Positions 1-53,749 of a DNA stretch of 64,000 nt are shown here, piece by piece. The notes below the pieces were generated by a model. The model saw only the letters and a list, made by a program, of their open reading frames with translations. It was not told the DNA's origin and made no database searches. Position 1 is the stretch's first letter, and every line of letters starts with the position of its first letter. The stretch comes from Narcine bancroftii (Eukaryota). The position numbers were made by a program, and so were the translations under genes. The stretch covers positions 187,736,001 through 187,800,000 of the forward strand of contig NC_091470.1 in assembly GCF_036971445.1 (NCBI RefSeq), read 5' to 3'.

Positions 1-290
1 GAGTTTTGCCGCCAGCCTTCCAGACTTCTGGGGGGATTCCATCCATACCTGCTGCTTTGCCACTTTTCAGTTGTTCGATTGCCTTATATGTCTCATCCAG
101 GGTGGGAACCTCATCCAGCTCTAGCCTTAGGGGCTGTTGAGGGAGCTGGAGCAGGGCGGAATCTTGGACTGAGCGGTTGGTACTGAAAAGAGATTGGAAG
201 TGTTCTGACCATCGGTTGAGGATGGAGATCTTGTCGCTGAGGAGGACTTTGCCGTCTGAGCTGCGCAGCGGGCTTTGGACTTGGGGTCCA
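1..290 (-). mobile_element. RTE-clade LINE ORF2 fragment, truncated by the window edge
   Basis: Minus strand reads VPTLDETYKAIEQLKSGKAAGMDGIPPEVWKAGG, the KAxGxDGIPxE region at the start of the RT domain of RTE/BovB-type LINEs. Confidence 0.75.
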
Positions 291-740
291 AATAGTGTTG
301 CGCTAACCATACTACCCCATGCAGGTAATGTGGGAAATGCAGCAGTTAAATTTGAAAAGAGGAAGGTTTAATAAATAGTGACATGATAATGGGCACATAC
401 TCTGGTGATGTTAATTGAGGGATAAATGTTAGCCAAGCCAAGGTCCTTGACATTCCTCCTTTTAAGATTGGACTTTTACATTCACCTGAAATGGCAGGCA
501 ACCCCACAGTTTAACATCTCATCTGAAAGACTTTGTCTCCAATTACCCGACACATGATCTACTCCACTGAACTGCTGGCCATGATTTTCGTGCTTGTTTC
601 CCCAGGGAGGCATTTGAACCAATAACTTAATCTCACTTAAAAGTGCTGCTATCTGAACCACAGCTGACCATTAATATAAAGGGGACTCTGTGGAAATGCA
701 GTTTCAAAATAGTAATATCTGAATTACTGTATATTTTAGC

Positions 741-2928
741 CATATCACCATATACAGCACAGAACAGGCCAGTTCGGCCCTACTAGTCCATGCCGGAACA
801 AATTCCCACCCTCCTAGTCCCACTGACCAGCACCTCGTCCATACCCCTCCAATCCTCCCCCCTCCATGTAATTATCCAGTCTTTCCTTAAACGTAAATAA
901 TGTCCTTGCTTCAACCACCCCTGCCGGAAGCTTATTCCACATCCTAACCATCCTTTGCGTGAAGAAATTGCCCCTCATGTTCCCCTTATAATTTTCCCCC
1001 TGCAATCTCAAACCATGGCCTCTGGTTTGAATATCTTCCACTCTTAATTGAAAAAGCCTATCCACGTTGGCTCTCTCTGTCCCTTTTAAAATCTTGAACA
1101 CCTCCATCAAATCCCCCCTCAATCTTCTATGCTCCAGAGAAAAAAGCCCCAGGCTGCTTAACCTTTCTCTGTAACTCAAACCCTAACATCCTGTCCACAT
1201 TCTCGTGAACCTTCTCTGCACTCTCTCTATTTTGTTTATATCCTTCCTATAATTCGATGACCAAAACTGCACACAGTATTCCAAACTTGGGCTCACCAAT
1301 GCTTTGTACAATTTCATCATAACATCCCAACTCTTGAATTCAATACTCCGATTGATGAAGGCCAACATTCCAAATGCCTTCTCACCACTCTATCTACCTG
1401 AGTATCAACTTTGAGGGTACTATTTACCATAACTCCTAAATCTGCACTCCTCAATTGTCTACCATTCAATGTATAGGACCTATTTAGATTTGCTTTTCCA
1501 AAATGCAACACTTCACACTTATCCGTATTAAATTCCATCAGCCATTTCTCAGCCCACTCCTCTAGCTTTCCTATATCTCTTTTTAAGCCAAGGTAATCTT
1601 CCTGACTGTCCACAATACCACCAATCTTTGTATCATCTGCAAACTTACTTATCCAATTTACCACCCCTTCTTCCAGATCGTTAATATATATAACAAACAA
1701 TAGTGGACCCAGGACCGATTCCTGAGGAACTCCACTAGTCACCAGTCTCCAATTGGACAAACAATTATCTACCACTACTCTCTGACACCTCCCATCCAAC
1801 CAGTGCTGAATCCATTTCACTACATCCTTACTTATACCTAATGCCTCCACCTTTTTTCCTAACCTCCTGTGGGGAACTTTGTCAAAAGCCTTACTAAAGT
1901 CTAAATAGACAAAATCCACAGCCTACCCTTCATCAATCTTTTTTGTAACCCCCTCGAAAAACTCTATAAGGGTTGTTAAGCATGATCTACCCGACAAAAC
2001 CATGCTGACTACTACCTATCAATCTTTGTTCTTCCAAATATTTGTAAATGTCATCCCTCAGAACACTTTCCATCAACTTACCCACCACAGACGTCAGACT
2101 CACAGGTCTATAATTTCCAGGTTGGACCCTTTCTTAAACAGCGGAACAACATGAGCCATCCTCCAATCCTCTGGCACTACCCCCATAACCAGTGACATCC
2201 TAAATATCTCTGTTAATGGCCCCACTATCCGTACACTGAGTGTGCAGAGTCTCCCTGAGTGTCTTTGGGAATACTTTGGCTGGACCCAGAGATTTATCCA
2301 CCTTTACCTTTTTTAACACTGCCATCACTACCTCCTCAGTTATCCTTATATGATTCATGACCTCCCCACTATTTTTCTTTACTTCAACTGGTACAATTTT
2401 TTTTCCCCTAGTGAATACCAAGAAATAATTTAAAATTTCCCCCATCTCCTCTGACTTTTCACATAGCCTACCCTCCCTATCTACAAGGGGTCCAATTTTT
2501 AATCCCTCACTAATCTTTTACTTTTAATGTACCTATAGAAACCCTTTGGATTTATTCTTACTCTGCCTGCCAAAGCCTCTTCGTGCTTCTTTTTGGCCTT
2601 TCTAATTTCTTTCTTAAGATTTTTACTACACTCCTTGTAGTCCTCTTTCAATTTCTCATCACCCTGCTGTTTATACCTCTTGTACACCTCCCTCTTTCTC
2701 CTAATCAAATTTCTAATATTTCTCGAAAACCAAGGCTCCCTATGACTTCCAGCCTTTCCTTTGATCCTCACTGGGACATATCTACTCTGTACTCTCAAAA
2801 TTTCTTCTTTGAATATTCTCCATTTTTCATTTACATCCTTTCCTGAAAAAAATCATGTCCCACTCAAAACTCACCAAAGCCATTCTCATTCCTTCGAAAT
2901 TTGCTTTTCTCCAATACAGAACCTCAAC
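741..2928 (-). mobile_element. CR1 LINE, 3' half (RT and C-terminal part of ORF2), degenerate
   Basis: ORF pieces YLDFSKAFDKVPH, SGVPQESVLGPLLFVIYINDL, KFADDTK, LGLFSLEHRRLRGDL and RGNFFTQR; several frameshifts. Confidence 0.92.
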
Positions 2929-5900
2929 ATTTTTTTTTCACACTATAAACCACATTGATCAAGATACATACATTTTTCTTTTCAAATATATAGTGTCATT
3001 TTCTCCTCCCCCCTTCCTCTTCCCATCCCACCCTCCCTACCTCACCTCCCATTCATTTAAAGTACAGAATCTAAGATACATTAAACCCGTCAAACAATGT
3101 TGTCACTCAATAAAAATAAACAAGAAATTCCACTGAGTCAATTCTTTTCATTTCCTTCTCTTTCTGTCATTTTAGGTGGTAGATGTCCCTGGTAGGTTTT
3201 CTCTATAGTGTTTCATGTATGGCTCCCATATTTGTTCAAATATTGTAATATTATTTCTTAAATTATATGTTATTTTTTCTAATGGAATACATTTATTCAT
3301 TTCTATATACCATTGTTGTATTCTCAAGTTATCTTCTAATTTCCAGGCTGACATAATACATTTTTTTGCTACGGCTAGAGCTATCCTAACAAATCTTTTT
3401 TGTGCACCATCCAAATCAAGTCCAAATTCTTTGTTTTTTATGTTACTTAGGAGGAAGATCTCTGGGTTTTTTTGGTATATTGCTTTCTGTGATTTTATTT
3501 AATATCTGGTTTAGATCTTCCCAAAATTTTTTCACTTTCTCACACGTCCAGATTGCATGAATTGTTGTTCCCATTTCTTTTTTACAACGAAAACATCTGT
3601 CAGATACTGTTGGGTCCCATTTATTTAACTTTTGAGGTGTAATGTATAGCCTGTGTATCCAGTTATATTGTATCATAATGTAACCTCGTGTTTATTGTAT
3701 TTCTCATAGTTCCAGAGCATAATTTCTCCCATGTTTCCTTCTTTATGTTTAAATCTTGTTCCCATTTTTGTTTAGCTTTACCATTTGTTTCCTCATTCTC
3801 CTTTTCTTGCAGTTTAATATACATATTTGTTATAAATTTTTTGATTATCATTGTATCTGTAATCACATATTCAAAGTTACTTCCCTCTGGTAACCTCAGA
3901 CTGCTTCCCAATTTGTCCTTCAAGTAGGATTTCAGTTGGGTGTATGCCAACACTGTATCTTGAGTTATATTATATTTATCCTTCATTTGTTCAAAGGATA
4001 GGGATTTATTTACTGAAAAGCAATTTTCTATTCTTTTGATCCCTTTTTTCTCCCATTCTCTAAAGGAAAGGTTATCTATTGTAAAAGGGATTAGCTGATT
4101 TTGTGTCAGTATTAGTTTTGGTAATTGATAATTTGTTTTATTCCTTTCCACATGAATCTTCTTCCAAATATTGAGCAGATGATGTAATACTGGAGAATTC
4201 CTACGTTGTACCAATTTTTCATCCCATTTATATATGTTCAGGTATCTTCTCCCCTATTTTATCTAGTTCTAATCTAGTCCAATCTGGCTTTTCCCTTGTT
4301 TGATAAAAATCTGATAGGTATCTTAATTGTGCAGCTCTATAATAATTTTTAACATTTGGCAGTTGTAAGCCTCCTTGTTTATACCATTCTGTTAATTTAT
4401 CTAGTGCTATCCTCGGTTTCCCCCCTTTCCATAAAAATTTCCTTCTTATTTTCCTTAACTCCTTGAAGAATTTCTCTGTCAAGTGTATTGGCAATGCCTG
4501 AAATAGATATTGTATCCTTGGGAAAATGTTCATTTTAATACAGTTTATCCTTCCTATTAGTGTTAGTGGTAAGTCTTTCCAATGCTCTAAATCGTCCTGT
4601 AATTTTTTTCATTAGTGGATAATAATTGAGTTTATATAGATGGCCGAGATTTTTATTTATTTCTAGGTATCGTATTGCTTGCATTTGCCATCTGAATGGT
4701 GATTCTTTCTTAAATTTTGAGAAATCCGCATTATTCATTGGCATTGCTTCACTTTTATTTGCGTTAATCTTGTAACCCGACACTTCTCCATATTCCTTCA
4801 ATTTCTTATGTAATTCTTTTATTGATATTTCTGGTTCTGTTAAGTATACTATAACGTCATCTGCAAATAAACTGATTTTATATTCCTTGTCTTTTATTTT
4901 TATCCCTTTTATTTTATTTTCTGTTCTTATCAATTCTGCTAGTGGTTCTATAGCTAACGCGAACAATAAGGGCGATAGTGGGCATCCCTGCTTAAGTTAA
5001 ATTGCTTTGATATATATCCATTTTACTGTCACTTTCGCCAATGGCCCCATATATAATGCTTTAATCCAATTAATATATTTCTCTGGTAAACTGAATTTTT
5101 GTAGTACTTTGAATAAATAATTCCATTCTACTCTGTCAAAGGCCTTCTCTGTGTCTAAAGCAACTGCTACTGTTGGAGCTTTATTCCCTTCTACTGCATG
5201 AATTAAGTTGATAAATTTACAAATATTGTCTGTTGTTCGTCTTTTTTTTAATAAATCCAGTTTGGTCTAGATTTACTATTTTAGGTACATAGTCGGCTAA
5301 TCTGTTTGCTAATAGTTTAGCTATTATCTTAAGTAAAGATATTGGTCTATATGACGCTGGTGCGAGTCGATCTTTCCCTGTCTTTGGTATTACTGTAATT
5401 ATTGCTGTTTTGCATGAATCTGGAAGGTTTGTGTTTTATCAATCTGGTTGATTACTTCCAGGAGGGGAGGAATTAATAAATCTTTAAATGTTTTATAGAA
5501 TTCTATTGGGAATCCATCCTCTCCTGGTGTTTTATTATTCGGTAGTTTTTTATTATTTCTTGTATTTCTACTATTTCAAATGGTTATGTTAATTTATTTT
5601 GTTCCTCTATTTGTAATTTTGGTAGTTCAATTTTAGTTAGAAATTCATCTATTTTCCCTTCTTTCCCTTCGTTTTCAGTTTGGTATAATTGTTCGTAGAA
5701 TTCTTTGAAGTTTTCATTAATCTCCGTTGGATTATATGTGATTTGTTTGTCTTTTTTCCTTGATGCCAATACCATTCTCTTAGTTTGTTCTGTCTTAAGC
5801 TGCCATGCTAGAATTTTGTGCGTTTTTTTCTCCTAGTTCATAATATTTCTGTTTTGTCTTCATTATGTTCTTCTCCACCTTATATATTTTATTTTTTTTA

Positions 5901-8745
5901 TCTGCCAATTCTCTTCTTTTAGTTGTATCTTCCTTCATTACTAATTCTTTTTCTATATTTACTATTTCCCTTTCCAACTGCTCTGTTTCCTGATTGTAGT
6001 CCTTCTTCGTCTTGGTTACATAACTTATTATTTGCCCTCTGATGAACGCTTTCATTGCGTCCCATAGTATAAACTTATTTTTCACTGATTCCGTATTTAT
6101 TTCAAAATACATTTTAATTTGTCTTTCAATGAATTCTCTAAAATCCTGCCTTTTAAGTAGCATGGAATTTAATCTCCATCTATACATTCTTGGAGGGATG
6201 TCCTCTAACTTTATTATCAATATTAAGGGTGAATGGTCCGATAATATTCTAGCTTTATATTCTGTTTCCCTAACTCTGTCTTGCATACGAGCTGATAACA
6301 AAAATAGGTCTATTCTTGAGTATGTTTTATGTCTAGCCGAGTAATATGAATATTCCTTTTCCTTTGGGTGTTGTTTCCTCCATATATCCAAAAGTTGCAT
6401 TTCTTGCATCGATTTAATTATAAATTTGGTTACTTTGTTCTTTCTGTTAATTTTTTTCCCAGTTTTATCCATGTTTGAATCCAAATTAAGGTTGAAATCC
6501 CCTCCTATTAGTATGTTCCCTTGCGTGTCTGCTATCTTCAAAAATACATCTTGCATAAATTTTTGATCTTCTTCGTTAGGTGAATATACATTGAGTAAAT
6601 TCAAAAACTCCGAATACATCTGACATTTTATCATTACATATCTCCCTGCTGGATCTATTATTTCCTTTTCTATTTTAATTGGTACATTTTTACTGATTAA
6701 TATAGCTACTCCTCTAGCTTTTGAATTATATGACGCTGCTGTTACATGTCCTACCTAATCTCTCTTTAACTTCTTGTGCTCCATTTCAGTTAAGTGTGTT
6801 TCTTGCACGAATGCTATATCAATTTTTTCTTTTTTCAGTAAATTTAGCAGCTTCTTCCTTTTGATTTGGTTATGTATTCCGTTAATATTTAAAGTCATAT
6901 AGTTCAACATAGCCATTTCATACTTTGTTTATCTTTCCTTTCCGTTTCCTCATCATCACCTTTCCTTCTTATCCATTTCTGCTTTCTTGTTTTGAACACT
7001 TTATAAGACAACATTTCTAAAACATCAAACATTTCCCTTATTCTCCTATCTAAAATTTCTTTAACCCCACTAACCCCTCCCCTTCCTGAGTTGCCCTTTA
7101 TCGCTTGTCAGGCAACCACATCTCCCCTCTCCATTTGGATTTGCGAATTCACTTGCAAGCGTCAACTGATTTAGCAGTGACCGTAACTCCTCCCCACCCA
7201 GCCCCCCCCAGAAAAGATTTCAATTTTCATATATAACAAAGGTCACTCTCTTAATTCCCTCCTTACTTCCTCTCTTCCCTTTCATTCCCTTATTAATTCT
7301 TATCTATACTCTATATATTTTCCTTTAAATATGGATACACTCATGTACACACATATATACATACACACATACATATAGTTCATGGTCATTTTTAGTCTCG
7401 TTACATGTTTTAATCTCTCTGCCTGTTTTGTAGTTGTTCTGCAAATTTTCGTGCTTCCTCCGGATCCGAGAATAGTCTGTTTTGCTGCCCTGGAATAACT
7501 ATTTTAAGTACCACTGGGTACTTTAGCATAAATTTATATCCTTTTTTCCATAGGATCGATTTTGCTGTATTAAACGCCTTTCTCTTCTTCAGGAGTTCAA
7601 AACTTATGTCTGGATAGAAAAAATTTTTTTGACCTTTGTATTCCAGTGGCTTTTTGTCTTCTCTTATTTTCTTCATTGCTTTCTCCAATATATTTTCTCT
7701 TGTTGAATTTCTTAAGAATTTTACTAAAATGGATCTTGGTTTTTGGGCTATTGTTCTATGTGCCCTTTCTATTTCCATTTCTTCCTGTAATTCTGGTCTT
7801 CCTAGGACCCTGGGGATCCAATCTTTTATAAATTCTCTCATATTCTTGCCTTCTTCATCTTCCTTAAGGCCCACTATCTTTATATTATTTCTTCTATTAT
7901 AATTTTCCATTATATCTATCTTCTGAGCTAACAGCTCTTGTGTCTCTAACTTTTTTATTAGATTCTTCTAATTTCTTTTTTAAGTCCTCTACTTCCATTT
8001 CTATGGCTGTTTCTCATTCTTCCACCTTGTCCACTCTTTTTCCTATATCTGACATGACCATCTCTATTCTATTCATTTTTTCTTCTGCACTTTTAATTCT
8101 TCTTTTTATTTCACTAAATTCTTGTAATTGCCATTCTTTTACTGATTCCATATATTCTTTAAAAAAAATATCCATTGTCTTCCCTTTCTCTTCTTCTTCC
8201 ATTTCTCTATGTTCTTCTTCTTTTTCTTCCTCTGGATTGGTCATCTGTTGTTTCCTTGTTTTCTTTTTACTCTCTTTCTTGTTCTCGTTGTTTTCTATGT
8301 TCTCTTCCTGTTGTGGTGTTGCAGCTGTCATTCTCAGTTGTGGAGATCAACTCCTCAGCTGGTCCCCCCTCCCGTCAGTGTTTTTTTTTCATGCGCATCG
8401 CACATGCGCTACTCCTCATGCATGCACGGTTGCGCACTTTTACTTGGCTCCGCGAGCCATTTTTGTAGTCCTGAGCTCGGGACTTCCACTGACCTTAGGG
8501 AGCGGGCTTCTCTCTCCGCAGTGGGCCTCCTCAAACAGGTAAGGCCTTCACCTTCTTCTTCCGACGTTCTTTCTTCTTCCCGTTGCTTTCGACTTTTCTT
8601 TCTTCGCTGCCATTTTCTTCCCACCTTTACTTTCACTTTGTTTTAATTTTTATTCTTGCGCCTTTGTGTTTTGTGTATTTTTTTAAAACTTTTCCGGAGA
8701 GGGCTGGAGTTCCCTGACCGGCCACTACTCCATCACGTGACTCCT
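2929..8745 (-). mobile_element. Full-length L1/Tx1-clade LINE, copy 1 (ORF1, spacer, EN-RT-CCHC ORF2), disabled by frameshifts
   Basis: ORF1 NRRNNIKIVGLKE and FYPDIS; endonuclease GGDFN and SDHSP; RT SLFADDV; knuckle CFRCKKEMGTTIHAIWTC; poly(T) 2930-2938; 12-bp TSD CAGAACCTCAAC at 2917-2928 and 8746-8757. Confidence 0.95.
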
Positions 8746-10830
8746 CAGAACCTCAACTTTAGGCCCTTCTTTGCTCTTCCCTAAAACTACACTAAAACTA
8801 ATAGAGTTGTGATCACTAGACCCAATTTGTTCTCCAACATTAACCTCAGACACCTGACCTATCTCATTCCCTAACGGGAGATCCAGTATTACACCGTCCC
8901 GAGTTGGTTCCTCGACGTATTGATTAAGAAAACTATCTTGCACACATTTGACAAACTCTAGCCCATCCAGCCCTATTTCTGTATGGGTATCCCAATCAAT
9001 GTGAGGGAAGTTAAAATCTCCCATGATCACTACCTTATGTTTATTACACATATATGCTATCTCCTTGCAAATTTGTTCTTCCAATTTTCTTGGCCCATTT
9101 GGTGGTCTATAATGCATTCTTATTAGTACCCTCATGCCTCCTCCACCCCTCAATTCCACCCAAACAGCCTCACTGGACGATCCCTCCAAACCATCCTGCC
9201 ACCTCATGGCAGTTATGTCCTCCTTAACAAGCAGAGCAACTCCTCCCCCTTTTTTACCCCCTATTCTATCACATCTAAAACATTTGTATTCTGGAATATT
9301 TAGTTCCCAGTCCTGACCCTCCTGTAACCAGGTCTCACTAATTGCCACAACAAGTGCTAATCCATGCTCTAAGCTCATCTACCTTTTTCACTATGCTTCT
9401 TGCATTAAAGTACACGCATTTCAGAGAATGACCCTCACATATATTCCCTATTCTACCTTTTACCTTAACCTCCATCCTTCCTTTGTTATCTTTATCATTC
9501 TTAACTAGGTGGCCATGCACCCTAGACACTGCTTGCAAACTCTGCTCCCCACCCCCCTGCCAAACTAGTTTAAACCCTCCCCCACAGCTCTAGCAAATCT
9601 GCTTGCCAGGATATTGGTCCCCCTCCAGTTCAAGTGGAGTCCATACCTTTTGTACAAGTTCGACTTTCCCTAGAAGGGATCCCAATGATCCAAAAATCTT
9701 ATCCCCTGCCCCCTGCACCAGCTCTTTAGCCACGCATTCATCCTCCTATTTCTACCCTCTCAAACGCGTGGCACCAGCAGCAGTCCAGAGATTACTACCT
9801 TAGAGGTCCTGTTTTTTAACTTCCTGCCTAATTTTATGTATTCCTGTTTCAGGACCTCATCCCCACTTCTAACTAAGTCATTGGTCCCCACATAGAACAT
9901 TAAAGCACAGAACAGGTCCTTCAGCCCTCGATGTTGTGCCAACCCATATACAAAAAGTACTAAAGCCTTCCAGCCTTGTAACGCTCTTTTTTTCTTGTGC
10001 CCAAGAGACTCTTGTGACAGAGTATTTTGAAGTGGTTTAGATGGACCACGACTTCTGGCTGCTCACCTTCCCCTTGCAGAATTCTGTGAACTCAATCAGA
10101 GAAATCCCTGACCCTAGCACCAGGGAGACAACAGACCAACCTGGATCCCCAATCTCATCCAACAAACCTCCTATCTGTCCCTCTGACAAGTGAGTCCCCA
10201 ACCACAATTATCCTGTTCTTGTCCCTCCTTCCCTTCTGAGCCTCAGGGGCAGCCCCTGTGCCAGAGACCTGACCCCCACAACTCATCCCTGGTAGGCTGC
10301 TTCCCCCAGCAGTATCCAATGCCAAATACATGTTGCTGAGGGGCACTTCCACAGGGGTACTCTGCACTGGCACTCTCCCTCCTTTCCTTATGGTCACCCA
10401 ATTCCCTGACTCCTGACTGTCTCCCTGTAACTCCTCTCTATCACTACCTCTGCTTCCCTTATGATCCTCAGTTCATCCAATTGTAACTCAAGCTCCCTAA
10501 CACGGTCACTCATTATATGCAATTGGATGCACCTTTTGCAGGTGTAATCATCAGGTACAGCTGTGCAGTCTCTGATTTCCACACATCCCACAATTGGAGC
10601 ACTTAACTACCCCAACTGACTCCATTACCTCCCTTCTCAATGTATATAGGTTATTTAAAAAGAAAAACTAAACAAATAATACTAAAAGACTAACCAAAAA
10701 GGACACCTTACCACACAGGGAGCTCCTTCTTACCGAAGTCCCTCAAGCCCAAGTCTCCACTCCTTCACTGCCCCACTCCTCACTGGCCGCTCCCTCCCCT
10801 TTTTACTCCTTTTTATCGACCCTTTGACCA
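8746..10830 (-). mobile_element. CR1 LINE, 5' half (ORF1 with Zn finger and SGNH esterase motif; ORF2 endonuclease)
   Basis: YTCKRCIQL, IVVGDSLVRGTDRRF, YFNARSI, ISETWL, MGDFNFP and GSSDHN. The frame KVEVL continues as YWRKANF on the far side of the L1 insertion. Confidence 0.9.
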
Positions 10831-11960
10831 ATTAACCCCGTCACTTTCACCAAGCTCCTCCGACTGGATAAATTTTACTGGATACATTATACAAGATTGC
10901 AGGATACATTTAAAGATTGGTCAATCCAAGAAACAGATTGTGCCAAAGACTCTAAGTAAATGTCAGTCATAGAGAATGCATTGTTTTATCACTTTGTTCC
11001 TGCCTGTGGCAGATTCATTGCTCTTCAGTTTGGGACATTTTCTAATATCAAATTCTCTGTCACTGGCCTTGTGCACTGCCAAGTAAGGCCAGCTGCAAAT
11101 TGGAGGAACAACACCTTGTATTCCACCTTGGCAGTCTCCAATCAAATGGCATCAGTATTAACAGTTCTGTTAACCCCTTCCCCCAGCTCTCTTGTTACCT
11201 CATCTCCCTGTCTTCCTCCCTCCAGCTCCTCACCTCCTTTCTTTTTTTTAAATTTTTTTATTTTTTTATTCGATGAACCATACTGACCAAAATACACACA
11301 AACATTTCCCTCTTGAATATAATTTTAAAACATTTTTTGGGGGATACAGCGCGGTTACAGGCCATTTTACATCCCATTAGCCTACAACTCCCGGGGGGGG
11401 GGGGGGAACTGATGCGGGGAGACACGTGCAAACTCCTTACAGGCAGCGCGGGATTCGAATCCTGATACCAATCGCTGGCACGCCAAACTGTGCCGCCCCG
11501 ATGAGCCGATACTCGGTCTTCCCAGGGTTGTTTGGCAGGACAACTTTGTTGAGGGTGATGGAAGCCTCCAGAGGGCCCCCTTCGGCCTCAATGAACCCGA
11601 TTGCTGGGATCCTCAAAATGCATCCCCGAAACCTCTGCACTAAAATGCAAAATACTGGACTAAATCTTTAAAATATATATATTAATTACATCTGCAGTCT
11701 GCCAGCATCCTATGCACAATTTGTTTTTCCTGTCAAACGTGCATATAGGGCCACCCACTGGGGATGGATGTGGGAGAAGAACTTGCAAACTCCACACCGA
11801 CAGCACAGAAGGTCGGGATCGAACCCAGAGCTGCGACGGGGGGTGGGGGGATGGTGCACCGAACGAGCCTGCAGCGCTGCGAGCAAAGGCCTGTGCATGG
11901 CTAGCAGTACAAGATGGGTTGAACCGCCGGGGGGGGCGCGGTGGCGGGAGGTGGTCTCAC

Positions 11961-12027
11961 CTGCTGCGAAGGACAGGCCGGTCAGCAGCAGCAGCGACAG
12001 AGCGAGCGGATAAGCGGCAGCGGCCAT
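11961..12027 (-). CDS. First coding exon (signal peptide) of an unidentified gene; B2M or MHC class I candidate; downstream exons not found in the window
   Basis: Kozak-like GGC-ATG-G; 22 codons MAAAAYPLALSLLLLTGLSFAA plus 1 nt; consensus donor CAG|GTGAGA; CpG-rich context; immune-type promoter just upstream. Confidence 0.75.
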
Positions 12028-12069
12028 GCCCGAGTCCGGGTCCGGATGCGCCGACTCCGGAGCGGCTGC

Positions 12070-12235
12070 TTTTGCTTTCACTTTCCCCTTCGCGCACCCT
12101 GTGATTTCTCGGAACTGTGGCAGGGCGGGAGGCAGACGAGGCCGTGACCGAGACGGGGAATTCGGACTCTCGGCTGGAAATCCCCCGCAGAGACAAAGCG
12201 GATTAAACACGGTTGCAGGTGCAAGACTTTCCCCT
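12070..12235 (-). promoter_or_regulatory. Interferon/NF-kB-type promoter: ISRE, GAS, GC box and kB sites
   Basis: GAAAGTGAAAGC (minus strand, 12074-12085), TTCTCGGAA (12106-12114), GGGCGG (12123), GGAAATCCCC (12176-12185), kB-like AGACTTTCCC (12224-12233). Confidence 0.7.
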
Positions 12236-12289
12236 CGGATCTAACTCATTGTCAAGATCACACGCTCCACCCCCCAACCCCGGACTCTC

Positions 12290-17488: not shown

Positions 17489-17579
17489 TTACAGGGTCCT
17501 CCCGTACCTGGCTGCACACAGGGGCGCCCCCAGAGCCTGGTACCAGATCTCATTCCGCCTTCCAAACAGTCTCAGAGGG
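17489..17579 (-). CDS. SOUL/HEBP2-like gene, coding exon 6 (last)
   Basis: Acceptor ttcccatcctgcag; reads (S)PLRLFGRRNEIWYQALGAPLCAARYGRTL*, matching the SOUL C-terminal SP...RxNEVW motif; phase 2 fits the preceding exon. Confidence 0.9.
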
Positions 17580-17699
17580 CTGCAGGATGGGAAAGACAGG
17601 GCACTCAGTGAACAGCAGAAGTTCCATCCCCTCCTGGTATAGAGGGCAGCACCGGCCACCTGGTGAAGGGGTGGGTGGACTGTCCTCGTTCTTTGTCTG

Positions 17700-18625
17700 T
17701 ACTCGCACCCAAACACTTTCCAGCATACCCATCTCCTCTCCACCTCCAGCATCATGCCTCTGCATCCTTCATCCCCCTCCTGCACCCCACTTGGACCCTC
17801 CTGTACCTCCTCAAATGCTCCCATACCCCCTTGGACACTACTATTCCCCCTGACCTTCCTGCACCTTCTCGAACCCTCCTGTCCCCCCTCAGACCCTCCC
17901 ATACCCCCTTGGACCCTACCATTCCCCCCCCACTGACTCTCCTTGAACCCTCCTGTCCCCCCCTCTGAACCTCCCTCACCACCCATGAAACTCCTGCACC
18001 CTCGGACCCTCCCTCACTCTCATTGTACCCTCCTTCCCCTTATAGCCACCCACATGCCCTCGGACTCTCCTACCCACATCTTCTATACCCTCCCAGCACC
18101 CCAGACCCTCCCACCCTTCTTGGGCCCTCCCGCACCCCCATGGACACTCCCACCCTACACCATTCCGTTCCCAGAGGACCCTCCACCATCCTGCACCCAC
18201 AGACCCTCCAACACCCACTTGGACCCTCCTGTCCCCTTGCTCTCTGCCCCTCCCCCAGCTCTCACCCCCCCCCCACTCTCCTGCCCAACCCCCCTGGAAC
18301 CTCCTGTATATACCCCTCTACCCTCCTGCACCCCCACAGAACCTCCCTCGAACCCTTGGACCCTCCTCCAAACCCTCCATCCCCCCCCCAACAGGACCCT
18401 CCCGCCACCTCTCGTAGCCTCACGCCACCTCTCGTAGCCTCACGCCACCCCCTCAGATGTTCCTGGACCCCAGCGTACCTTCCTGCACCACCGGAAACTC
18501 CCGCAATCTCCGTGAATCCTCCCGAAACACCCTCGGCCCCTCCCCAGCCCCCTCTTGTAATGTCGTTTCAACACCACCAGCGCCAATCCTCCCCCCCACC
18601 CCCCGCCCGCCCTATACCCCTCCTC
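17700..18625. repeat. C-rich (G-rich on the sense strand) low-complexity intronic tract
   Basis: Degenerate CCCTCCTGCACCCC and GGACCCTCC units filling most of the last SOUL intron. Confidence 0.8.
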
Positions 18626-18628
18626 CAC

Positions 18629-18786
18629 CTGCTGTACTCAGCGACGTAGAAACGATCTCGCAGGAAGCTCTCTCTCTGCCGGAGCAGGTCCTCGAACAAC
18701 TCCTGCGCCTTGCGCTCAAGGCGGAAGAGCAAAGCGCCCGCTGGCCGAACGAACAGGACCTGTCCGGGAGCATGGCTCAGGTACAC
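18629..18786 (-). CDS. SOUL/HEBP2-like gene, coding exon 5
   Basis: Acceptor ccttctgcag; VYLSHAPGQVLFVRPAGALLFRLERKAQELFEDLLRQRESFLRDRFYVAEYS aligns with the HEBP2 segment VFIEDR..TVFVRSF...VYYTAGYN; 158 nt; weak donor AG|GTGGAG. Confidence 0.88.
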
Positions 18787-19264
18787 CTGCAGAAGGATAG
18801 CAGCTAGTGTAAGTGTGTGAGGGTCTCTGTTCAGAGGGGCGGGCTTTCTCAGGGTGGGTTGGGAGCTGTAGTTTGACATACCAGTGGAGCGGTCGGTGGG
18901 CGAAATGATGGGGGTACCCCGGCCTGGGAATATCGCAGATCCCGACTCCAGGGGAAATGGGGACGAGCAAAGTGGGGTGCCAGGGGTGAAGACTCCCGGC
19001 ATGGGGGGGGGGGGGGAAAGGAAGGTCTGCGTGGATCTGGGTCGAACCGGGTGTGCAGGGTGAGTGTGCGGTGGGCTCCAGATGTGCAGGGAGGCTCTGG
19101 GGTAAGCTCCAGTTGTGGAAGGAGGGGCTGGGTGGATTTCAGCTGAGGAAGGAGGGGCTGAGATGATCAGGAGTGGAGAGAGGTAGGGTCTGGGGGTAGG
19201 GGTCTAAACATGAAGGGAGAAGCGGTGAACTGTGGATTTTGGAGGGTCATGTGGGGTCTTCATC

Positions 19265-19700
19265 TGGAACCTGGTGGAGTGTGGGTCGTGGAGGGCGATG
19301 TGACCTCTCCGCCTGGTAACTGGTGGGAGTGTGGGTCATGGAGGGTCACGTGACCTCTCCGCCTGGAACCTGGTGCGAGTGTAGGTCGTGGAGGGCACGT
19401 GACCTCTCCGCCTGGTAACTGGTGGGAGTGTGGGTCATGGAGGGCGATGTGACCTCTCCGCCTGGTAACTGGTGGGAGTGTGGGTCATGGAGGGTCACGT
19501 GACCTCTCCGCCTGGAACCTGGTGCGAGTGTAGGTCGTGGAGGGCACGTGACCTCTCCGCCTGGTAACTGGTGGGAGTGTGGGTCATGGAGGACCACGTG
19601 AGCTCTCCGACTAGAACCTGGTACGAGTGTGGGTCGAGGAGGGTCACGTCACCTCTCCGTCTGGAACGTGGTGGGAGTGAGGATCGTGGAGGCTCATGTA
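19265..19700. repeat. 49-50-bp minisatellite, about 8-9 units, with higher-order structure
   Basis: TGACCTCTCCGCCTGG recurs at 19301, 19351, 19400, 19450, 19500 and 19549. Confidence 0.93.
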
Positions 19701-21029
19701 ACCTCTCTGCCAGGGACCTCCTGGGAAGTCGAATCACCCTCCGATCAGGGGCACAGTGCTAATATTTTAGGTGCTGGAGCTCACCAGAAATGATCAAATA
19801 TCCTCATGTTATTAGGGGCATTCTCCCCTCTCACCACAGCCAGAACCCCCTCTACAACTCCCACCCAAACACCCGCTTCTGTAAAATCCCCAGTCCTCAG
19901 AGTCGGCGTCAGAATAAATCTAATAGAGGGGCATTAGGGTAACTGTGGGGCGGTGGGGGGGGGGGGCGTGGGCACAGGTGTATCTACTCAAAATAACGGT
20001 GACAAGGCGGTACCTTGGTGGCCATCAATTTGAATTTAGCGTTGTATAATTGAAAGCGAACGGTATGATGAGTGTGGAAGAAGCAGGTTCCTTGTATGTC
20101 CAGAATAGTGTTCAGCGAGCGTGGATGGGGGGGGAGAAAGACCCTGACCCTGCCTGTATTTAATATGTGGCCACTGTTAAATTCCCCACTTATTTATTTT
20201 GCCTTTTTCTTTAATAAATGGAGGCGCCAGCGCTCCGCACCCTCCTGCGCCAATCAAGATTGGACTCTAGCCACTTGACCACTGGCCCCTTTAATCACTC
20301 ACTGATTATCTCGTCCCCATCTTACTGCAGTTTAAAAGACCACCACATGCCGCCAATCTGATCACGTCTAATGAGGGCTGTTCCATGCCAGGCCGTGGAA
20401 AGGTAAGGTGGTAAGGTGTGCACTACACTGAGAGTGGAACCGTAGTATTGTATGGGAATACTTGGCGTTGAACTGTACTCCAGAGGTACAGGGAAATCGG
20501 GAGTGTATGTTAAAGTCCCTGTCTTGTAAGAGTGTGTTAGTTACCAGATATTTCTGCACAAGTGAGGGAGGACTGTGTCCGATGTGAATGCCTATCACAG
20601 TTTTAGTTGCTCTGTTTCTTCCCTGTGATCATCCCTTGTTTGTTAGCTGGACTCACTTATCTGTGAACCCAATTTAAATCTCACGGAACAGGTTGGGACA
20701 CACTGGAAGCGGAAAGAGGTCATCTCCAGCTCGAGAGAGTGTCTGAATTGGGCTCCAGATGTGGAGGGAGGAGTCGTCCTGATCTCCAGCTGCAGAGGCC
20801 AGAGAGGGCGCGCTCCAGATGTGTGGAGAGGGAAATGTGCCAGGACCCCCCCCCCTCCCCAAAACGGCCAGCATCAAGGTCAGGATCGAACCCAGGTCCT
20901 TGGTGTTGTGAGGCGGTGTTTGGCGTGGGGAGGGAGTGGTGGGGGGGGGGGGAGAGAGAGAGGAATCTGGGGATGGTAGGGAGGAAGGCAACCCTAGGTC
21001 CCGGGCATCCACTGGAAGAATATACTCAC

Positions 21030-21163
21030 GAGCTCGTCCCGGGGAAGCGGAGGGTTTAAAAGAAACCGTCTGGGCAGCAAGAAGAAAACAGCCATCGGCC
21101 TGGGGTCACCATTGAGGCTCGTGTAGAGGGTCAGGATGGGTGCCGTCCGCTCAATCTGTATTC
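21030..21163 (-). CDS. SOUL/HEBP2-like gene, coding exon 4
   Basis: Acceptor ctgattcctcag, donor GTGAGT; (G)IQIERTAPILTLYTSLNGDPRPMAVFFLLPRRFLLNPPLPRDEL matches the SOUL MTAPV...FxLP...PPxPxD motif; 134 nt. Confidence 0.9.
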
Positions 21164-22412
21164 CTGAGGAATCAGGAGTGAATTCTTAGGAATAAGTATC
21201 TCCAGTGACCTGATCTGCACCAAGGACGTTTCCTTGGTTAAGAAAGCTTCAAAGTCTCCGCTTTCTCAGAAGACAAGGGAGATTCGGCATGTCTCGCCAC
21301 TCTGTCCAAATGCCAGAGGCTTGAAACGGCCTGTTAAAGGATCTGACAGCACTGGCATCACTCTGGGGCGGGGGGGGGGGGTGGAGGGTGCGGACCGCAC
21401 CGGGTGACTCCATCAGTCAGGGTGACACCACAATGACTGTAAAATTTCTGTTCAGTGTTTTGGCAGAAATGTATTATTTTTTATAAAAATATCCCTGTTG
21501 TTCGTTATAACAACAAAAACATTTTTCGTCAGCCCAGTTCCATGCATCAAGACTAAAACTCAAGGCTCATTTATGTTTTGAACCTCCGGTCAGAGCGGTC
21601 ATCACAAGCCAATGACGATGACGTTTTGAATCATGGGGGTTTCCGTCTGCGCACAAAAATCAGCAAACGCTGTGTTTTTGTTGCTGCTGGGATTTTTACA
21701 GTCGCTGCTTTTGACACATTTTCTAGTGTTTTAGCGACATTAGTATTTGGGAACCGAGATCACTAACTTTTTTGAGTTCTGAGTGGGACCTAGCCCACTT
21801 CAGGGCACAGGCTCTGATTTTATTTCTTGTGATCACGCAGCAGCCTTGCCTCTGCTCGAGCACCCCTCCTGCGACGTCATGCTCCCACTCTGGCCAATGA
21901 GTGATCCCTCTTCTCGCTAATCATTGTTTCTTTGTCATCTTTCTTTGGGCACCCTCATTCTTTCTCCCTCTCTTTCCAACTTCTTAATTGTTCCCGCTGC
22001 TGCACGGTTGGTCAAATCCCTTGGCCGCTTTGATGACTTTTCACTTAAAGCTGTCTTCATTTCGCTGGAGGCTCCATGATGACACCCACCTGCCGGTCAC
22101 ACCAGCTCAGTTCACACGCGTGTTTTTTTCTTGTGGGGGGGGGGGAATCATCTTCTGCACCCGATATAAGATGAAACCGTGAAATTCAGGCTGAGAGTGG
22201 GGACCTGTTTTATCTGAAGGTCAACTTATACTCCAAAATATATACCATCACCTCGTCTCTTTGTTCTACAACACTCCCAGGGTCCTACCAGTCACTGTGT
22301 ACATGCCCGGGTTAACCTACCAAGGTGCAGCATTACTCTTGTTCAAGTTCAATTCCATCCGCCATTGCAGAGCCCACTTTCTCAGTGCATCTCAATCCTG
22401 TTGTAATCGCAG

Positions 22413-23270
22413 TGTTACGAGCCCAGAGGACCCCAAACCCCAGCAGCAATAGACAAATGGTAACTTAAACAAAAGTTGTTTTCAATTATCTTTAAACATG
22501 AAAATAGAATCACACTTCAACTTAACTCTATTAACTTAACTAACCTAACTTAATCCCCTTCTAATTCTAAGCGCGTGTATGTAATGTGTGTGTGTAAGTT
22601 CAGAAAAGTTCTTTGGTTCACAGTCCAATCTCACTTCTCATTCCTCCAAGTCACTGGTTGCAGGCAATTCTTATACTATGCACACAATTTAACCTTTAGA
22701 AAGTTCACCAGACTTTGGTGCTTGAAAGGTAAATGGTTACCGCTCAGGAAGGTTCTTGTCAGTTTTCAGAGAGAGATTTGTTGTTCCAGGACATCCACAG
22801 TAGATTCCTTTTTAATCAGTCACTCCAGTGTCTTGCTGAAGAAACTTGCCCCCTCAGGGTTCTCCAGATGATTACCTCTTTCTTTCAGGTCACCACAGAG
22901 TGCTTTTTTTGTTTCTCTTATTCCATGTGAAACGTTAGGTAGCCAGTCCTCTCCTCTTGAATGAACCACAAGGGCATTGACCAGGCTGAACAAAGCACTT
23001 ACAAACCCATCTTCCAAATGGGGCTTTCCCCAAGCTTGCCAGCTTGTCCTGTTCCAGTCCCAGTTGCTGTTGCTGGCTGTAACACTGTAAAAGTGATCTC
23101 CGTCTGTCTCTCAGAAAAAGCCTGTTTGACTCTCTCTGCTTACAAAATCACATGACCCTCTTCAAACAACTCCAGACAATCTGCAGCTCCAATGAGATAT
23201 TTCATCTGTTGCCTTTTGTAAACAACAATCCTCTAGTGAAGTCTCTTGGGCACTCTCCAAAGCTCTGCCT
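22413..23270 (+). mobile_element. Solo LTR of the TGTTACGAGCCC family; 3' end not resolved
   Basis: Starts TGTTACGAGCCCAGAGGACCCC and is collinear with the 27320 copy. Confidence 0.78.
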
Positions 23271-25629
23271 TGGCCGTGGCTGGAAAACGTCTGGCATTAT
23301 CTTGGACAGTGGAAATGAGATCTTGTATTCCACTGGAAAAGATAACATATAATTTCCCTAATAATTATCCCTTTTTTGTTAAAACCTGGAGCCCGTATGT
23401 GGAATATGTGCAATTAAATTATTAATTCTTTTTCACCATGCATTGGTGGTGGTGCCCCAAACCATGCAAATTATGAAAGGGTGTTATGTTACTTCATCTC
23501 TTAATTTTCTTTCTTTTTTGAGGTGGTTTAGAGGGGTGTTGGGGTTTGTAAAGGGTTAAAATCCTATGTCTGTATTTTATTATTAAATAAATTTTTCAAA
23601 AGGACTCTGACTTTGTACATTGATTTTTTTTTTCTTTTCTCTGTAATGCACAGATGATTTTCACATTTATTAGTTTACACAGGGTACAGTTTTATTTGCA
23701 CTACTAAGAAGTGGTTATTCTACCTCGCCCTGCAGGAAAAAGGAACGCGACGTCACGTATGTAATTCTTCCAAGAAATCTGAATCCTGGCTGTATGACAG
23801 ATTCCTGGCTGGATCTATAAATACGGTGAAGGCTAATCGAGTCAACGCTTGCCTGTCAGCATTGGGCTCAACGTGGGAGCTGCCGTTTGCCTTGCCGCCC
23901 CACGGAATAAGTGCCTGGCCAGTCTCCCTCTGCACACCCTGAGCTTGGAGGGTGTCCAGGGGCCGAATGACTAAGCACCGGATGGAAACAGAGAATAAAG
24001 GTTAAGGAGCTAAAATAGAACTTCTGAGGGAATCGGAGAAACATGGAGACAGGGGTTGACTTATTGGTTGAAGGGTAATAGTAAGCTGCCGTCTGGTACT
24101 GTATTGAGAGGGGTTTATATACAGGTGTCCTGGAGTGATTTTTTATATTTAGACATACTGCACGGTGACAAGCCTCTTTGGACCACGGGTCCGTGCCGCC
24201 CAATTCACACCCCATTAACCAACACCCCCAGTACGTTTTGGAGGGTGGGATGACTCCGGAGGTTCCCCCCCTCCGGGGAAAACCGGCGGAGACACGAGAA
24301 GAACGTACAAACACCTCGCAGACAAGTCAGGAGTTTGTAAACTCCTTACACCGCGGGATCCCGATCGCTGGCGCTGTCGGGGGGCGGGGGCGCCAGAATG
24401 AATGTCAGGTGGGGCATTAGCGTGCTGGGTGGGATGCTGTTAACTTAGGTGACGAGAGCACTGCTCTTACGGCGTCAAGCATTAACAGACGCCGGGGTGC
24501 GGGTGGCATGCTATTGAAGGTGGGGGGGGGGGGGGGGGGGGGGGGGGGGGGCGGGGGGGGAGGATCTGACGGCGAGCGATGGCACCTGTTCCCTGACAGG
24601 TATTTGGGGTCACGTAGAGAGAATTTGGTGTGGTCAAATTTGCAGTACTCTGGGCAGTTTTGGTCACCTAACTCCAGGAAGGAAATGAATAAGATTGAAC
24701 GAGTGCAGAGATTATAGAATGTAATAGAACAGAACGTGTAATATTACACGAAATTGCCCCCTGTCTCCCATAAGTCAAAGAGACTTATGTTGCCCGGTGC
24801 CCCTTACAGTAAGAGAGAAGCAAAAGAGAGTCCCTTCAGAGGGACTGAGCGTGCATGGATTCGTCTCCAGCGTCCCCGCGGCTTCTGTAGACCCCCCTGT
24901 TCGATCCATCGATGACCCAAGCTTCAGATCCGAACGGGAGGTCTTCAGCCGCCCGATGCCCTTCTTGCCATCCTCTGGAATCCCGTTACCCCGGGTCACG
25001 CAAAGTCAAGTCGGCCTCCACCTGCGGGGGTCCCTCAGCTGCTGAGCCCCCGCCTCACCTTCCCCGTTGGGTCGCACCCCCCCCCCCCCCCGCTTCTCCG
25101 TGGTGGTGGGAGGGGGGATTCTCCCCGTTTATGGTGCCCCCCCCCCCCGGAGCTTACGACGACCCCCACCCTCGTGGCCTCTGTCGAGCACAGGCGCCGC
25201 CACCTTGGGAGCGGACCCCGCGGTGGTAGGGTTTTACTGACAAGCACCGTCGGCCCCTCCAACGGTAAAACCCGTGCAGAGCTTTTTTGGGGAAACCTTT
25301 GGAGCAGCGCCGCGTCTCCGTTCTCCCGGGGCCACAACAGCGTTGCCATTTTGTGTAAGTTGTGCGAATGCAATAGATTGTTCGCAAAAGAACCCTTCTC
25401 ACGGCACAAGGTGAAATAGGAGCTGGAGTCAGCCATCCTGCTCCGCTGCTCGGAGATCACAGGTCGTGGTCCACCTCCCTGTCTCCCCCCGCCACCCAAC
25501 TCTCTGTCATGAGGCAGTCTCCACGGCTTCCCTGTGCAGAGAATTCCACCTCTTTCCAGGGAAAAGCACTTTCTCCTCATCTCAGTCCTGAATCTACTCC
25601 CTGGAATTTTGACCTGAGGTCCCCAAGAT

Positions 25630-26000
25630 CAGAGGTTCTTAACCCTTCTCTTTCCACTTACGTCCCACTTTAAATCATCCCTCTGCCATTGGGTGCGGTG
25701 TGATTAGTAAGGGATTGCTTAAGGAGGGATGTAGGTGGGAAGGGAAGGTTGAGAACCACGACTCAATCCAATTGTTACTGAAATATTTTGCTGGAGAAAA
25801 ATGGTCATTGGCCTATTTCCTCTGGAGCGATGAAACCGTGCACATAGCGAGTCAATGAGGGACGATTAAAGCAGTAGCCTCCAAACTTTTTCTTTCCACC
25901 CACTTAAGTAAACAATCCCTTACTGATCACAGAGCATCGATGGCAGAGGGAAAACTTAAAGTGGGATGTGAGTGGAAAGTTAAAGGTTGAGAACCACTGG
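25630..26000. mobile_element. Non-autonomous hAT-like MITE (CAGTGGTTCTCAACC family)
   Basis: Inverted ends resembling CAGTGGTTCTCAACC; related pieces at 40580-40878, 47081-47135 and 49430-49520. Confidence 0.6.
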
Positions 26001-26634
26001 ACTAGATCTTGTCTCACCTGCCAGTGCAAAAAAAATCTTTCTTTCTTTGGCTTGGCTTCGCGGACGAAGATTTATGGAGGGGGTAAAAAGTCCACGTCAG
26101 CTGCAGGCTCGTTTGTGGCTGACAAGTCCGATGCGGGACAGGCAGACACGATTGCAGCGGTTGCAGGGGAAAATTGGTTGGTTGGGGTTGGGTTTTTCCT
26201 CCTTTGCCTTTTGTCAGTGAGGTGGGCTCTGCGGTCTTCTTCAAAGGAGGTTGCTGCCCGCCAAACTGTGAGGCGCCAAGATGCACGGTTTGAGGCGTTA
26301 TCAGCCCACTGGCGGTGGTCAATGTGGCAGGCACCAAGAAAAATAGACTGTACTCAACGTGCGCACGTAAACAAACAAAGAACTGGAAACAGGTAATGAA
26401 TGCAAACCCTTCCCCACCCCCGCCACCGTCCAGAACATCTACGGGGAACACTGCCTGTCGGAGGGCAGCAGCGAACACCAAGGACCCTCGCCACCCAGCG
26501 GACGCTCTGTTCTCGCTGTTGCCCTCGGGAAAGGGGTGTAGGTGCCTCCACCAGGTTCAGGAGCAAGCAGCACCCCCTCCACCTCATCGACAAACTCAAT
26601 CAGGGACTCCTTTAAGGGACTCTTACTTTTAAAA

Positions 26635-28840
26635 AAAACTTTATTTATTAAACAGCAGTTAAAATACAAATATAGAACAAAGTATAACGATAACACAAAA
26701 TCTTCTCCCTCTCCCCCCTCCTATTCCCTCTCTCCCAACCTCTACCCCACCCCCCCAAAAATATAATAATAAGTGGAGTTAAAATACATATTTATCGGTA
26801 TTTTAATGCCAAGGATGTCGCAAATCCCATCTAACAAAAGCCGTCATATTTCCAAACCTGCACATTTCAAATACGGATTCCACATTGTAATAAAGAAAGA
26901 ATAATTATTATACACATTATAAGTGATCTTTTTCAGACGATTACAAATTCTCAATTCAATATGCCATTTTTGCATATTTAATTCAATATCATTCTTCCAT
27001 GTAATTGCTATACATTTCCTAGCAACTGCTAAAGCCAAACGAATAAATGCCATTTCAAATTTGTTTAATTTTAAACCCAAAGTCAACGTTGTGGTACATC
27101 CCAATAAAAATAAAAACAGATAAGGGTTAGTTTAAATTTGAATAAACCTTCCAAAAGCTCCATAATTCTATACCAAAAAGTCTTTACCTTTTCGCAAAGC
27201 CAAACTGAGTGCAAAAAAGTACCTAGTTCTCTTCCACATCTGAAACATACATCTGAAGAACTAAAACTTTTAACTTCTCGGGAGTTAAATACAATTGGTG
27301 TAAAAAGTTATAATGAACCTGTTACGAGCCCAAAGGACCCCAAAACCCAGCAGCAATAGATATTCACCATGACGAGTAATTACTTAAACAAAAGTTTTTA
27401 ATGATCTTTAAACATGACAACAGAATCAAAATTTAACTTATCCCTATTAACTTAACTAACCCAACTTAACCCCCTTCTAATTCTAAGCGCACGTGTGTGT
27501 AAATGTAAGAAAAGTTCTTTGGTTCACAGTTCAATCTCACTTCTCATTCTTCCAAGTTCACTGGTTGCAGGCAATTCTTATACTGTGCACAGAATTTAAC
27601 ATTTATAAAGTTCACCAGGCTTTGGTGCTCGAAAGGTAAATGGTTACCGCTCATGAAGGTTCTTGTGGGTTTGCAGAGAGGGATGTGTGGTTCCAGGATT
27701 TCCACTGAGGTACCACCATTAGTCACCTCAATGTCTTGCTGATGAAACTTGCCCCATCAGGGTTCTCCAGATGATAACCTCTGTTTCTGTTCGACTTATT
27801 CCAAGAGAAACGTCAGGCAGATAGCACTTCCAGCCATCCGCCACTCTGGAGCTTCTGTTTCCATTCCAACAAGCTTCTCCTGGCTTGTTACAGCTTTGTG
27901 TGTCATACACAGTCAAAGACTTCCATCTGTCTCTCACTCTTTGTCTGAGATTCAAACTCCCAGCAGCATGTCCTTCTCTCTCTCACTTACAAAACCCCTG
28001 ACCTTCTCCAGCAAAAAATAGGAGTTAGTCTCCTGCTCCCATCTGTTGTTTTAGGTAAACAAGAACCTCTCAATGACCTCTGACTGAGCACTTTGCAGAG
28101 AGGTCAAAAGCCTTGCAAAATGGTCCAAAACAGACAACCTGACACTGGTTGTTCTTCCAAGTCAATGATCTATTCATTTCATGACATCATTTCAATTAGC
28201 ACCTACTTGTGAAATGTCCATAGCATTCTCCATAGTTTCTGTAAAGTCACTGAATATGAATACTTCAGTATTTCAAATAAGATCTGTTTTAAAGTGTGTG
28301 TATGTATGTAATTTACTCTAATTCTACCAATTTATATCCCAAAAGGATTCCCAAATATTCCATCACAAACCAAACTGTATCTCACATTAATTAATCTAGA
28401 CATACTGTCCTCACACATAGTCCTCCACTCCTCCTGAGATATTGGAATAGATAAATCATTCTCCTGTTTAATTTTCATTTTATACAAATCATCTTCTTTT
28501 GCAATAGACCATACATTTCTGAAATAAAACCTTTTTTAAAACTCCATCAGTTAATAAGCATTAACACTTAGATCTTTTAGGTAATTTTAATTCATGCCCT
28601 AAATTATCTAATAACCAAGTACGTATTTGATAACATGCAAACAATGTATTTGACATAATCCCAAACTTTTCCTTTAATCTATTAAATGATAGAAACAATC
28701 CTTTTTCATAACAATCTCCTACTAATCTAATACCCTTCTATTCCCACAATATCAAATGATAATTATTCACTGAGAAAGAAAATAATTTATTCTGACATAT
28801 TGGGATATTAACCAAAATTGTAACTTTAATTCCCATAATT
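26635..28840 (-). mobile_element. Older L1-like 3' fragment, interrupted by a solo LTR
   Basis: RLALAVARKCIAITWK...KKITY is homologous to the ORF2 C-terminus of the full-length copies. Confidence 0.75.
27320..28367 (+). mobile_element. Solo LTR (1048 bp) with 4-bp TSD
   Basis: TGTTAC...TCACA ends; AACC at 27316-27319 and 28368-28371. Confidence 0.88.
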
Positions 28841-29086
28841 TGATCCCTGGTATGCCATATTTAAGGCCTCTTACTTGTGCACTTTCTTTGCTCTCCCTGT
28901 ATCGCTTAGTCAGTTTTTATACATTTGTTATCTGTTTACAGTTCTTTGTTTATATGTTCACGCTGTGTACAATTTATTTTTTGCGCTACCAATTAGTAGT
29001 CATTGTGCCGGGTCCGCTGGAGAAAAGTATCTCAGGGTTGTGTATGGACTCTGACGATATCTAAGTTGCACTCCATTCTGGCTTAC

Positions 29087-29198
29087 CTGGTCTATTCTTC
29101 TTGTTAAAGTATTCCGTCAGACGAGCCTTGGCACGGTATCTCCCTTCCGTGTGCAGAACGTGTGTGCCCACCCAAAGGCTGGGTTCAGAATCCCGAGT
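29087..29198 (-). CDS. SOUL/HEBP2-like gene, coding exon 3
   Basis: Acceptor cctccctcacag, donor CAG|GTAAGC; TRDSEPSLWVGTHVLHTEGRYRAKARLTEYFNKKNRP corresponds to SOUL xRxY..xWVST...LxxYIxGxN; 112 nt. Confidence 0.88.
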
Positions 29199-29759
29199 CT
29201 GTGAGGGAGGCAAGGGGAGATTTTCAAATGGTCGACTTGGAGTCAGCGCTGCTCCCCGCCCACCAGCGGGGAGGCTCTCGATTGGCACTTCTCCCAAACC
29301 CGAGGGATTTGGATCTCACCCCCTCCTCCCCACCATGGGCCTGGCCAAGGGGAAGGCTGGGAGACGAAGCTTCAATTTCCAGAGGGCTGGAGGACCCAGC
29401 TCAAAGACTGCAGATGTTGGAATCTGAAGGAAAGGGGTGGCCCAGTTAGTGCAGCACCAGTGATCGGAACGGGGGTTCGAATCCCGTGCCGTGCCGTCTC
29501 AAAGGAGTGCGTGTATTCTTCCCGTGTCTGCATGGGTTTCCGCCAGGTGCTCCGGTTTCCTCTCACTATTCAAACAAAATACAGGGATTGAAGGTCATTT
29601 GGGTGAAAATTGGACGGCATGGGCACAAGGGCCAAAAAGGCTGTTATCTAAATTTAAATAAGTGCTGGAAGAACTCAACAAGTTGACCAGCATCTGTGGA
29701 GAAAAAGGGATGGGTGACATTTGGCATTAAAACCCCGCATCAGGGCTGAGGGTCTAGAG

Positions 29760-53708: not shown

Positions 53709-53749
53709 GTAAGAGGGGCTGGAGTAGGGAAGGGTCGTGGGAGGGGGAT

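Follow-up and report, generated by a model that had tools for sequence, protein, structure and literature searches.

The leader exon at 12027-11961 on the minus strand is almost certainly the first coding exon of the tapasin gene, TAPBP, in Narcine bancroftii. It lies in a 64-kb window, by which we mean the whole 64,000-nucleotide stretch of DNA analyzed here, and a cluster of candidate regulatory motifs lies upstream of its ATG. Very probably both parts of our reading hold together, namely, that the exon is spliced TAPBP exon 1 and that the upstream cluster is likely an interferon/NF-kB-responsive control region. The exon and the parts of the gene that flank it are as follows:

11961..12027, minus strand: coding part of TAPBP exon 1, 67 nt, phase 1, encoding a 22-residue signal peptide (all 22 residues agree with the N terminus of XP_069775710.1; contig ends)
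11955..11960, minus strand: splice donor of intron 1, GTGAGA (from the sequence; contigs stop matching at 11961)
1..11960, minus strand: part of tapasin intron 1, which runs past the window edge, mostly LINE in gene-sense orientation (no exon 2 in the window)
12028..12261, minus strand: CpG-rich, TATA-less 5' region under RNA-type contigs, comprising 5' UTR, dispersed starts, or both (X1 and X2 contigs)

From the ATG at 12027, the exon reads through 22 codons and one further base to 11961, where it meets the donor CAG/GTGAGA, and the leader peptide that it encodes is hydrophobic and signal-like. The sequence-only reading of this DNA had described a 67-nt, phase-1 signal-peptide exon close to promoter motifs, and that description held, with the motifs lying 58 to 207 bp upstream of the exon. 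Each of three runs contained one contig that matched the exon without mismatches, ended its match exactly at 11961, and continued into sequence that was identical among the runs. The runs come from a single study and their RNA nature is our guess; a contig that skips an intron, however, cannot be genomic. Thirty letters were visible beyond the donor, the same in all three runs, and when translated by hand in the phase of the exon they read D-F-R-Q-G-W-V-P-E-V. A pattern search for these 30 letters gave no match within the 64-kb window. We conclude that the exon at 12027-11961 is genuine and spliced, a point that the contigs confirm.

When longer proteins were searched with the leader peptide, one of 247 candidates matched, XP_069775710.1; its E value (0.18) is weak on its own, given so short a query. 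This protein is the 452-residue RefSeq "tapasin-like" protein of N. bancroftii. Its residues 1 to 22 are the exon peptide (22/22), and its residues 23 to 32 are the peptide that we translated from beyond the donor. When the whole protein was searched against the PDB, tapasin matched across residues 10 to 436 with an E value of 5e-50, compared with 3e-34 at best for TAPBPR, and Pfam identified V-set and C1-set domains. The layout, which beyond residue 32 is that of the RefSeq model, comprises a leader, a tapasin N-terminal domain, an IgV domain, an IgC1 domain, and one membrane segment. Other genes suggested by the class III setting (complement factor B, LY6, and CSNK2B) were dropped after the splicing, the protein match, and the sawfish gene table had been considered.

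The ray protein is 60 to 62% identical to the tapasins of three other batoids and 49 to 53% identical to those of sharks and a chimaera, whereas identity to bat tapasin is 33%. It shares with mammalian tapasin the domain order, the N-terminal cysteine pair, the IgC1 domain, the N233 sequon, and the acidic residue and lysine of the membrane segment. The IgV disulfide pair (C209/C281) is also present, but the ray protein lacks the Cys95 that forms the ERp57 bond in mammals. The first coding exon of human tapasin is shorter than that of the ray. Neither the pattern search nor tblastn with four tapasins, in which only exon 1 was significant, found tapasin exon 2 in the 64-kb window, and the earlier remark that the window holds no mature-domain exon was accurate. 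Since intron 1 is longer than 11.9 kb, we place exon 2 beyond the window edge.

We then considered the motifs upstream of the ATG. We matched consensus patterns for the IRF element (IRF-E), GAS, and kB sites, and the sites are listed here in order of distance from the ATG:

12085-12074, minus strand: candidate IRF element (ISRE-type site) GAAAGTGAAAGC, at -58 (pattern match)
12114-12106, no strand assigned: candidate GAS (STAT) site TTCCGAGAA, at -87 (pattern match)
12123..12128, plus strand: candidate GC box (Sp1-type), near -101 (pattern match)
12155..12164, plus strand: kB-like site with one mismatch to consensus, at about -130 (read from the sequence)
12185-12176, minus strand: candidate consensus NF-kB site GGGGATTTCC, at -158 (pattern match)
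12224..12234, minus strand: kB-like site with one mismatch, at about -207 (read from the sequence; unmatched by the consensus pattern)

The "perfect" IRF element and the GAS site of the sequence-only reading were both recovered; the strict IRF-E pattern matches nowhere else in the 64-kb window than at 12085-12074, where a third A-rich half-site follows. Its plural "kB sites" fared less well, with one full consensus site at -158 and the other two each one base off. The 234 bp preceding the ATG were dinucleotide-shuffled 20,000 times, and an IRF-E occurred in 343 of the shuffles, a GAS in 2,489, and a kB site in 2,943. All three occurred together in 5 of the 20,000, a figure that somewhat overstates significance because the region and the motifs were picked after the fact. 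No second IRF-E/GAS/kB triple within 234 bp was found elsewhere in the 64-kb window. The observed/expected CpG ratio was 0.81 to 1.09 across 11901-12300, compared with 0.45 for the window, and a TATA pattern had no match in 11900-12400.

The contigs bear on where this cluster acts. The X1 contig reaches 12261 and the X2 contig 12256, both beyond every motif upstream of the exon, and thus the motifs may fall partly in the 5' UTR or among dispersed starts. The end of the X3 contig at 12033, 6 bases upstream of the ATG, we take to be library adapter and not a start site. An upstream open reading frame of two codons (ATG at 12249; 12247-12249, minus strand) lies within the part under the longest RNA-type contigs. 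That these contigs extend past the most distal motif, and that a GAS or kB site alone appears in 12 to 15% of shuffles, gives some weight to a different arrangement, in which the exon is still the first of tapasin but the real promoter is situated farther upstream than 12261, and either the motifs work from within the 5' UTR or not all of them have a function. We consider this arrangement unlikely, though a serious competitor: contigs can show neither transcription starts nor expression levels, the DNA upstream of 12300 is a 1.1-kb tandem repeat, and the CpG peak is centered on the motifs, whose triple occurrence was seen so seldom in the shuffles.

By analogy with tapasin and related genes in other vertebrates, we favor the reading in which the motif cluster is a functional interferon/NF-kB module, and this is probably the case. 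The cluster would likely make tapasin inducible by infection, as in bony fish and mammals. Salmon TAPBPa is reported to rise about 16-fold (log2 3.95) with IFN-gamma, and trout PSMB9a and TAP2 to depend on ISRE/GAS sites (PMC7573153). For the mouse tapasin promoter, a requirement for NF-kB and a co-occurrence of IRF2/E2F have been reported (cited secondarily in PMC6161448 and PMC1929144), and the ray cluster would have this NF-kB and IRF input in common with it. IRF1 and NF-kB are described as synergizing on tapasin (PMC3465322), and tapasin is listed among IFN-gamma-activated genes (PMC10095295).

Our proposed mechanism is as follows. Exon 1 supplies the 22-residue leader and is spliced, over an intron longer than 11.9 kb, to the exon with which the mature protein begins. 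Going by what is known of the family, tapasin would enter the ER, bind TAP through its membrane lysine, and edit peptides on MHC class I/B2M, and the ray protein would not be bonded covalently to ERp57 at the position used in mammals. The promoter is predicted to be TATA-less and CpG-rich, with scattered starts and no local S-X-Y module. STAT1 at the GAS site could drive an early response to IFN-gamma, this could be sustained by IRF1 (or ISGF3) bound to the IRF element, and the NF-kB and Sp1 sites might provide basal and inflammatory input.

Three tapasin paralogues are reported outside placental mammals (PMC5824609 and PMC9586880). To place the ray protein among them, we built a 56-row tree from 22 of the 25 rows of a first set and 34 further rows of 150, using a quick IQ-TREE search with SH-aLRT support and no bootstrap. 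Three fragments (P0017-P0019) and rows that were multi-Ig or short were excluded. It resolved into three clades, with a single long row left unplaced. XP_069775710.1 grouped with the three other batoids (SH-aLRT, 100) within a ten-row chondrichthyan group (99), which in turn nests in a clade of 31 rows (98), the tapasins of bat, stork, lungfish, and amphibians among them. The 12-row TAPBPR clade (97) includes tapasin-related proteins of dolphin, coelacanth, and shark. Most members of the third clade, also of 12 rows (100), carry KPY-type tails; TAPBPL proteins terminate in KPY according to the supplement of PMC5824609, and because the tails agree we take this clade to be TAPBPL.

It is nevertheless conceivable, at a very low probability, that the gene is one of the paralogues TAPBPR or TAPBPL. 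The RefSeq name "tapasin-like" leaves the paralogue open, XP_069775710.1 lacks both Cys95 and a dilysine tail, and no chondrichthyan TAPBPL is found among the named tree rows. TAPBPR and TAPBPL share the overall architecture of the ray protein (27 to 31% identity), but the clades stand apart. The ray protein sits in the TAPBP clade, and the shark TAPBPR (P0043) sits elsewhere. The membrane lysine is present in XP_069775710.1 and seven other chondrichthyan rows, replaced by arginine in two, and missing from the five TAPBPR/TAPBPL rows; both paralogues lack it, and TAPBPL has its KPY tail. The acidic membrane residue and the N233 sequon are also retained in the ray. As for Cys95, the position is threonine in 10/10 chondrichthyan rows, and the residue is reported to be absent from all non-human sequences studied in PMC5824609, so it does not define the tapasin family. 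The sawfish gene at the equivalent place is, moreover, labeled TAPBP in PMC10751288. The sequence comparison groups XP_069775710.1 with TAPBP and not with TAPBPR or TAPBPL.

The dilysine tail calls for separate comment. A K-x-K-x-x tail is present in nine of the ten chondrichthyan rows, XP_069775710.1 alone being without it in a RefSeq model whose last exons are outside the window. Its C terminus (the last 14 residues) departs from the other chondrichthyan rows at Gly-Lys-Cys, codons that can encode a consensus donor, which suggests intron read-through in the model. A gene-model error through donor read-through is the likely cause, and we think it improbable that ray tapasin truly has no ER-retrieval tail. 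The C terminus of the model is probably faulty and worth correction.

The sequence-only reading had named the gene as B2M or MHC class I. Human B2M exon 1 has, according to that reading, 67 coding nucleotides, and we regard the size match as coincidental. Despite the exon size, the phase-1 leader, the IRF-E and kB motifs, and the MHC neighborhood, all of which speak for that identity, there is next to no chance that the exon is the leader of B2M or an MHC class I heavy chain, since in 3/3 runs RNA-type contigs join it to tapasin sequence, giving residues 23 to 32 of XP_069775710.1, since no Y box, CRE, or X2 element matched simple patterns in 12028-12300, and since the PMC10751288 data place B2M and class I pathway genes about 12 Mb or more from the TAPBP block in sawfish and white shark. 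What survives of the immune-gene proposal is that this is the spliced leader exon of an MHC-linked gene of the class I pathway, although it is neither B2M nor class I. The mature protein differs as well as the place in the elasmobranch MHC: the leader joins a 452-residue membrane protein and not a single soluble IgC1 domain, which sets B2M aside, and a class I heavy chain was rejected when XP_069775710.1 gave no MHC_I Pfam match at E values up to 1. No class I chain was among its best 60 PDB matches. An S-X-Y enhanceosome like that of B2M and class I promoters was likewise rejected on the missing elements. Leader size and ISRE/kB motifs, in short, do not separate B2M and class I leaders from those of other genes in the class I pathway.

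Three Y-box pentamers do occur farther upstream, inside or at the edge of a tandem repeat. These C-rich repeats (periods of about 37 to 43) occupy roughly 1.1 kb at 12300-13425, starting 40 bp past the upstream limit of the longest contig, and similar arrays are present at 17870-18450, 19264-19726, and 54091-54580. On the other side of the exon, Pfam matched an endonuclease (8728-9378) and RVT_1 (1320-1922) in intron 1, and the LINE at 2930-8683 has a copy at 40892-46905 (90 to 92% identity). One LINE is thereby represented by two nearly complete copies, at 2930-8740 and 40892-47050 (minus strand), the first nested in an older element in the tapasin intron; we assume that the copies are L1-type and the older host CR1-type.

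Two further minus-strand genes lie upstream of tapasin in the window:

17489..33953, minus strand: SOUL/heme-binding-protein-like gene with six exons and its own signal peptide (P0196, N. bancroftii "heme-binding protein 1-like," six mapped pieces)
47776..51697, minus strand: GPANK1 coding exons, ankyrin plus G-patch (Pfam Ank_2, E value of 2e-13; G-patch, 1.7e-12)

The SOUL gene has its signal-peptide exon at 33953-33895 and one AATAAA at 16924, and Atlas and PDB searches with its exons gave no useful match. It sits next to tapasin on the upstream side, as its sawfish counterpart does, a case of a secreted SOUL protein encoded in the MHC of elasmobranchs. The name GPANK1 we infer from the ankyrin/G-patch domain pair and the sawfish synteny table. 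A CpG-rich region at 53400-53710 forms a head-to-head promoter region between GPANK1 (minus strand) and a plus-strand gene that begins near 53695. The latter has three short exons, the later ones at 56779-56866 and 60389-60441, for which Pfam and PDB searches gave no match; in agreement with the synteny table, it is likely VPS52. A gap of 302 N bases (53750-54051) directly follows its first exon. An open exon candidate of 315 nt at 36673-36987 (plus strand), for which no Pfam match was obtained, lies where sawfish has an uncharacterized gene on the opposite strand.

The sawfish order in the supplement of PMC10751288 is vps52, gpank1, an uncharacterized gene, a SLAM-like gene, heme-binding protein 2-like, and TAPBP. 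The relative orientation of the genes in the ray window agrees with the sawfish chr34 listing, and gpank1, the heme-binding protein gene, and TAPBP (LOC127585928) share order and orientation in the two species. The SLAM-family gene between gpank1 and the heme-binding gene was not identified in the ray in a search that was not thorough. The whole sawfish TAPBP gene spans 12.9 kb, and ray intron 1 alone (>11.9 kb) is almost as long. The neighbors of ray tapasin agree with the sawfish MHC table, and the window itself contains no class I or class II genes. In sawfish, B2M is given as ~12 Mb and TAP1/PSMB8 as ~16 Mb from the TAPBP block; in white shark, TAPBP is 0.74 Mb from gpank1, with B2M ~34 Mb and a class Ia gene ~47 Mb from TAPBP (PMC10751288). 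Within the portion of the main text of that paper available to us, tapbpl is mentioned and the gpank1-TAPBP block is not.

The tapasin gene of N. bancroftii is already annotated and its MHC position is published for a related ray, and because both are on record the identification adds little. In our literature search, in which subscription journals were mostly not covered, no account of a tapasin promoter from an elasmobranch turned up. On balance we lean slightly toward the view that the compact IRF-E, GAS, and kB module is a functional ancestral control region of tapasin, lying partly in the 5' UTR and without S-X-Y. If this is true, the class I peptide editor would have come under direct control by STAT1, IRF1, and NF-kB before cartilaginous and bony fish split, despite the megabases that separate elasmobranch tapasin from TAP, PSMB8, and class I. 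The main, modest value of the finding is therefore the promoter itself, a 230-bp testable unit for asking when interferon control of peptide loading arose.
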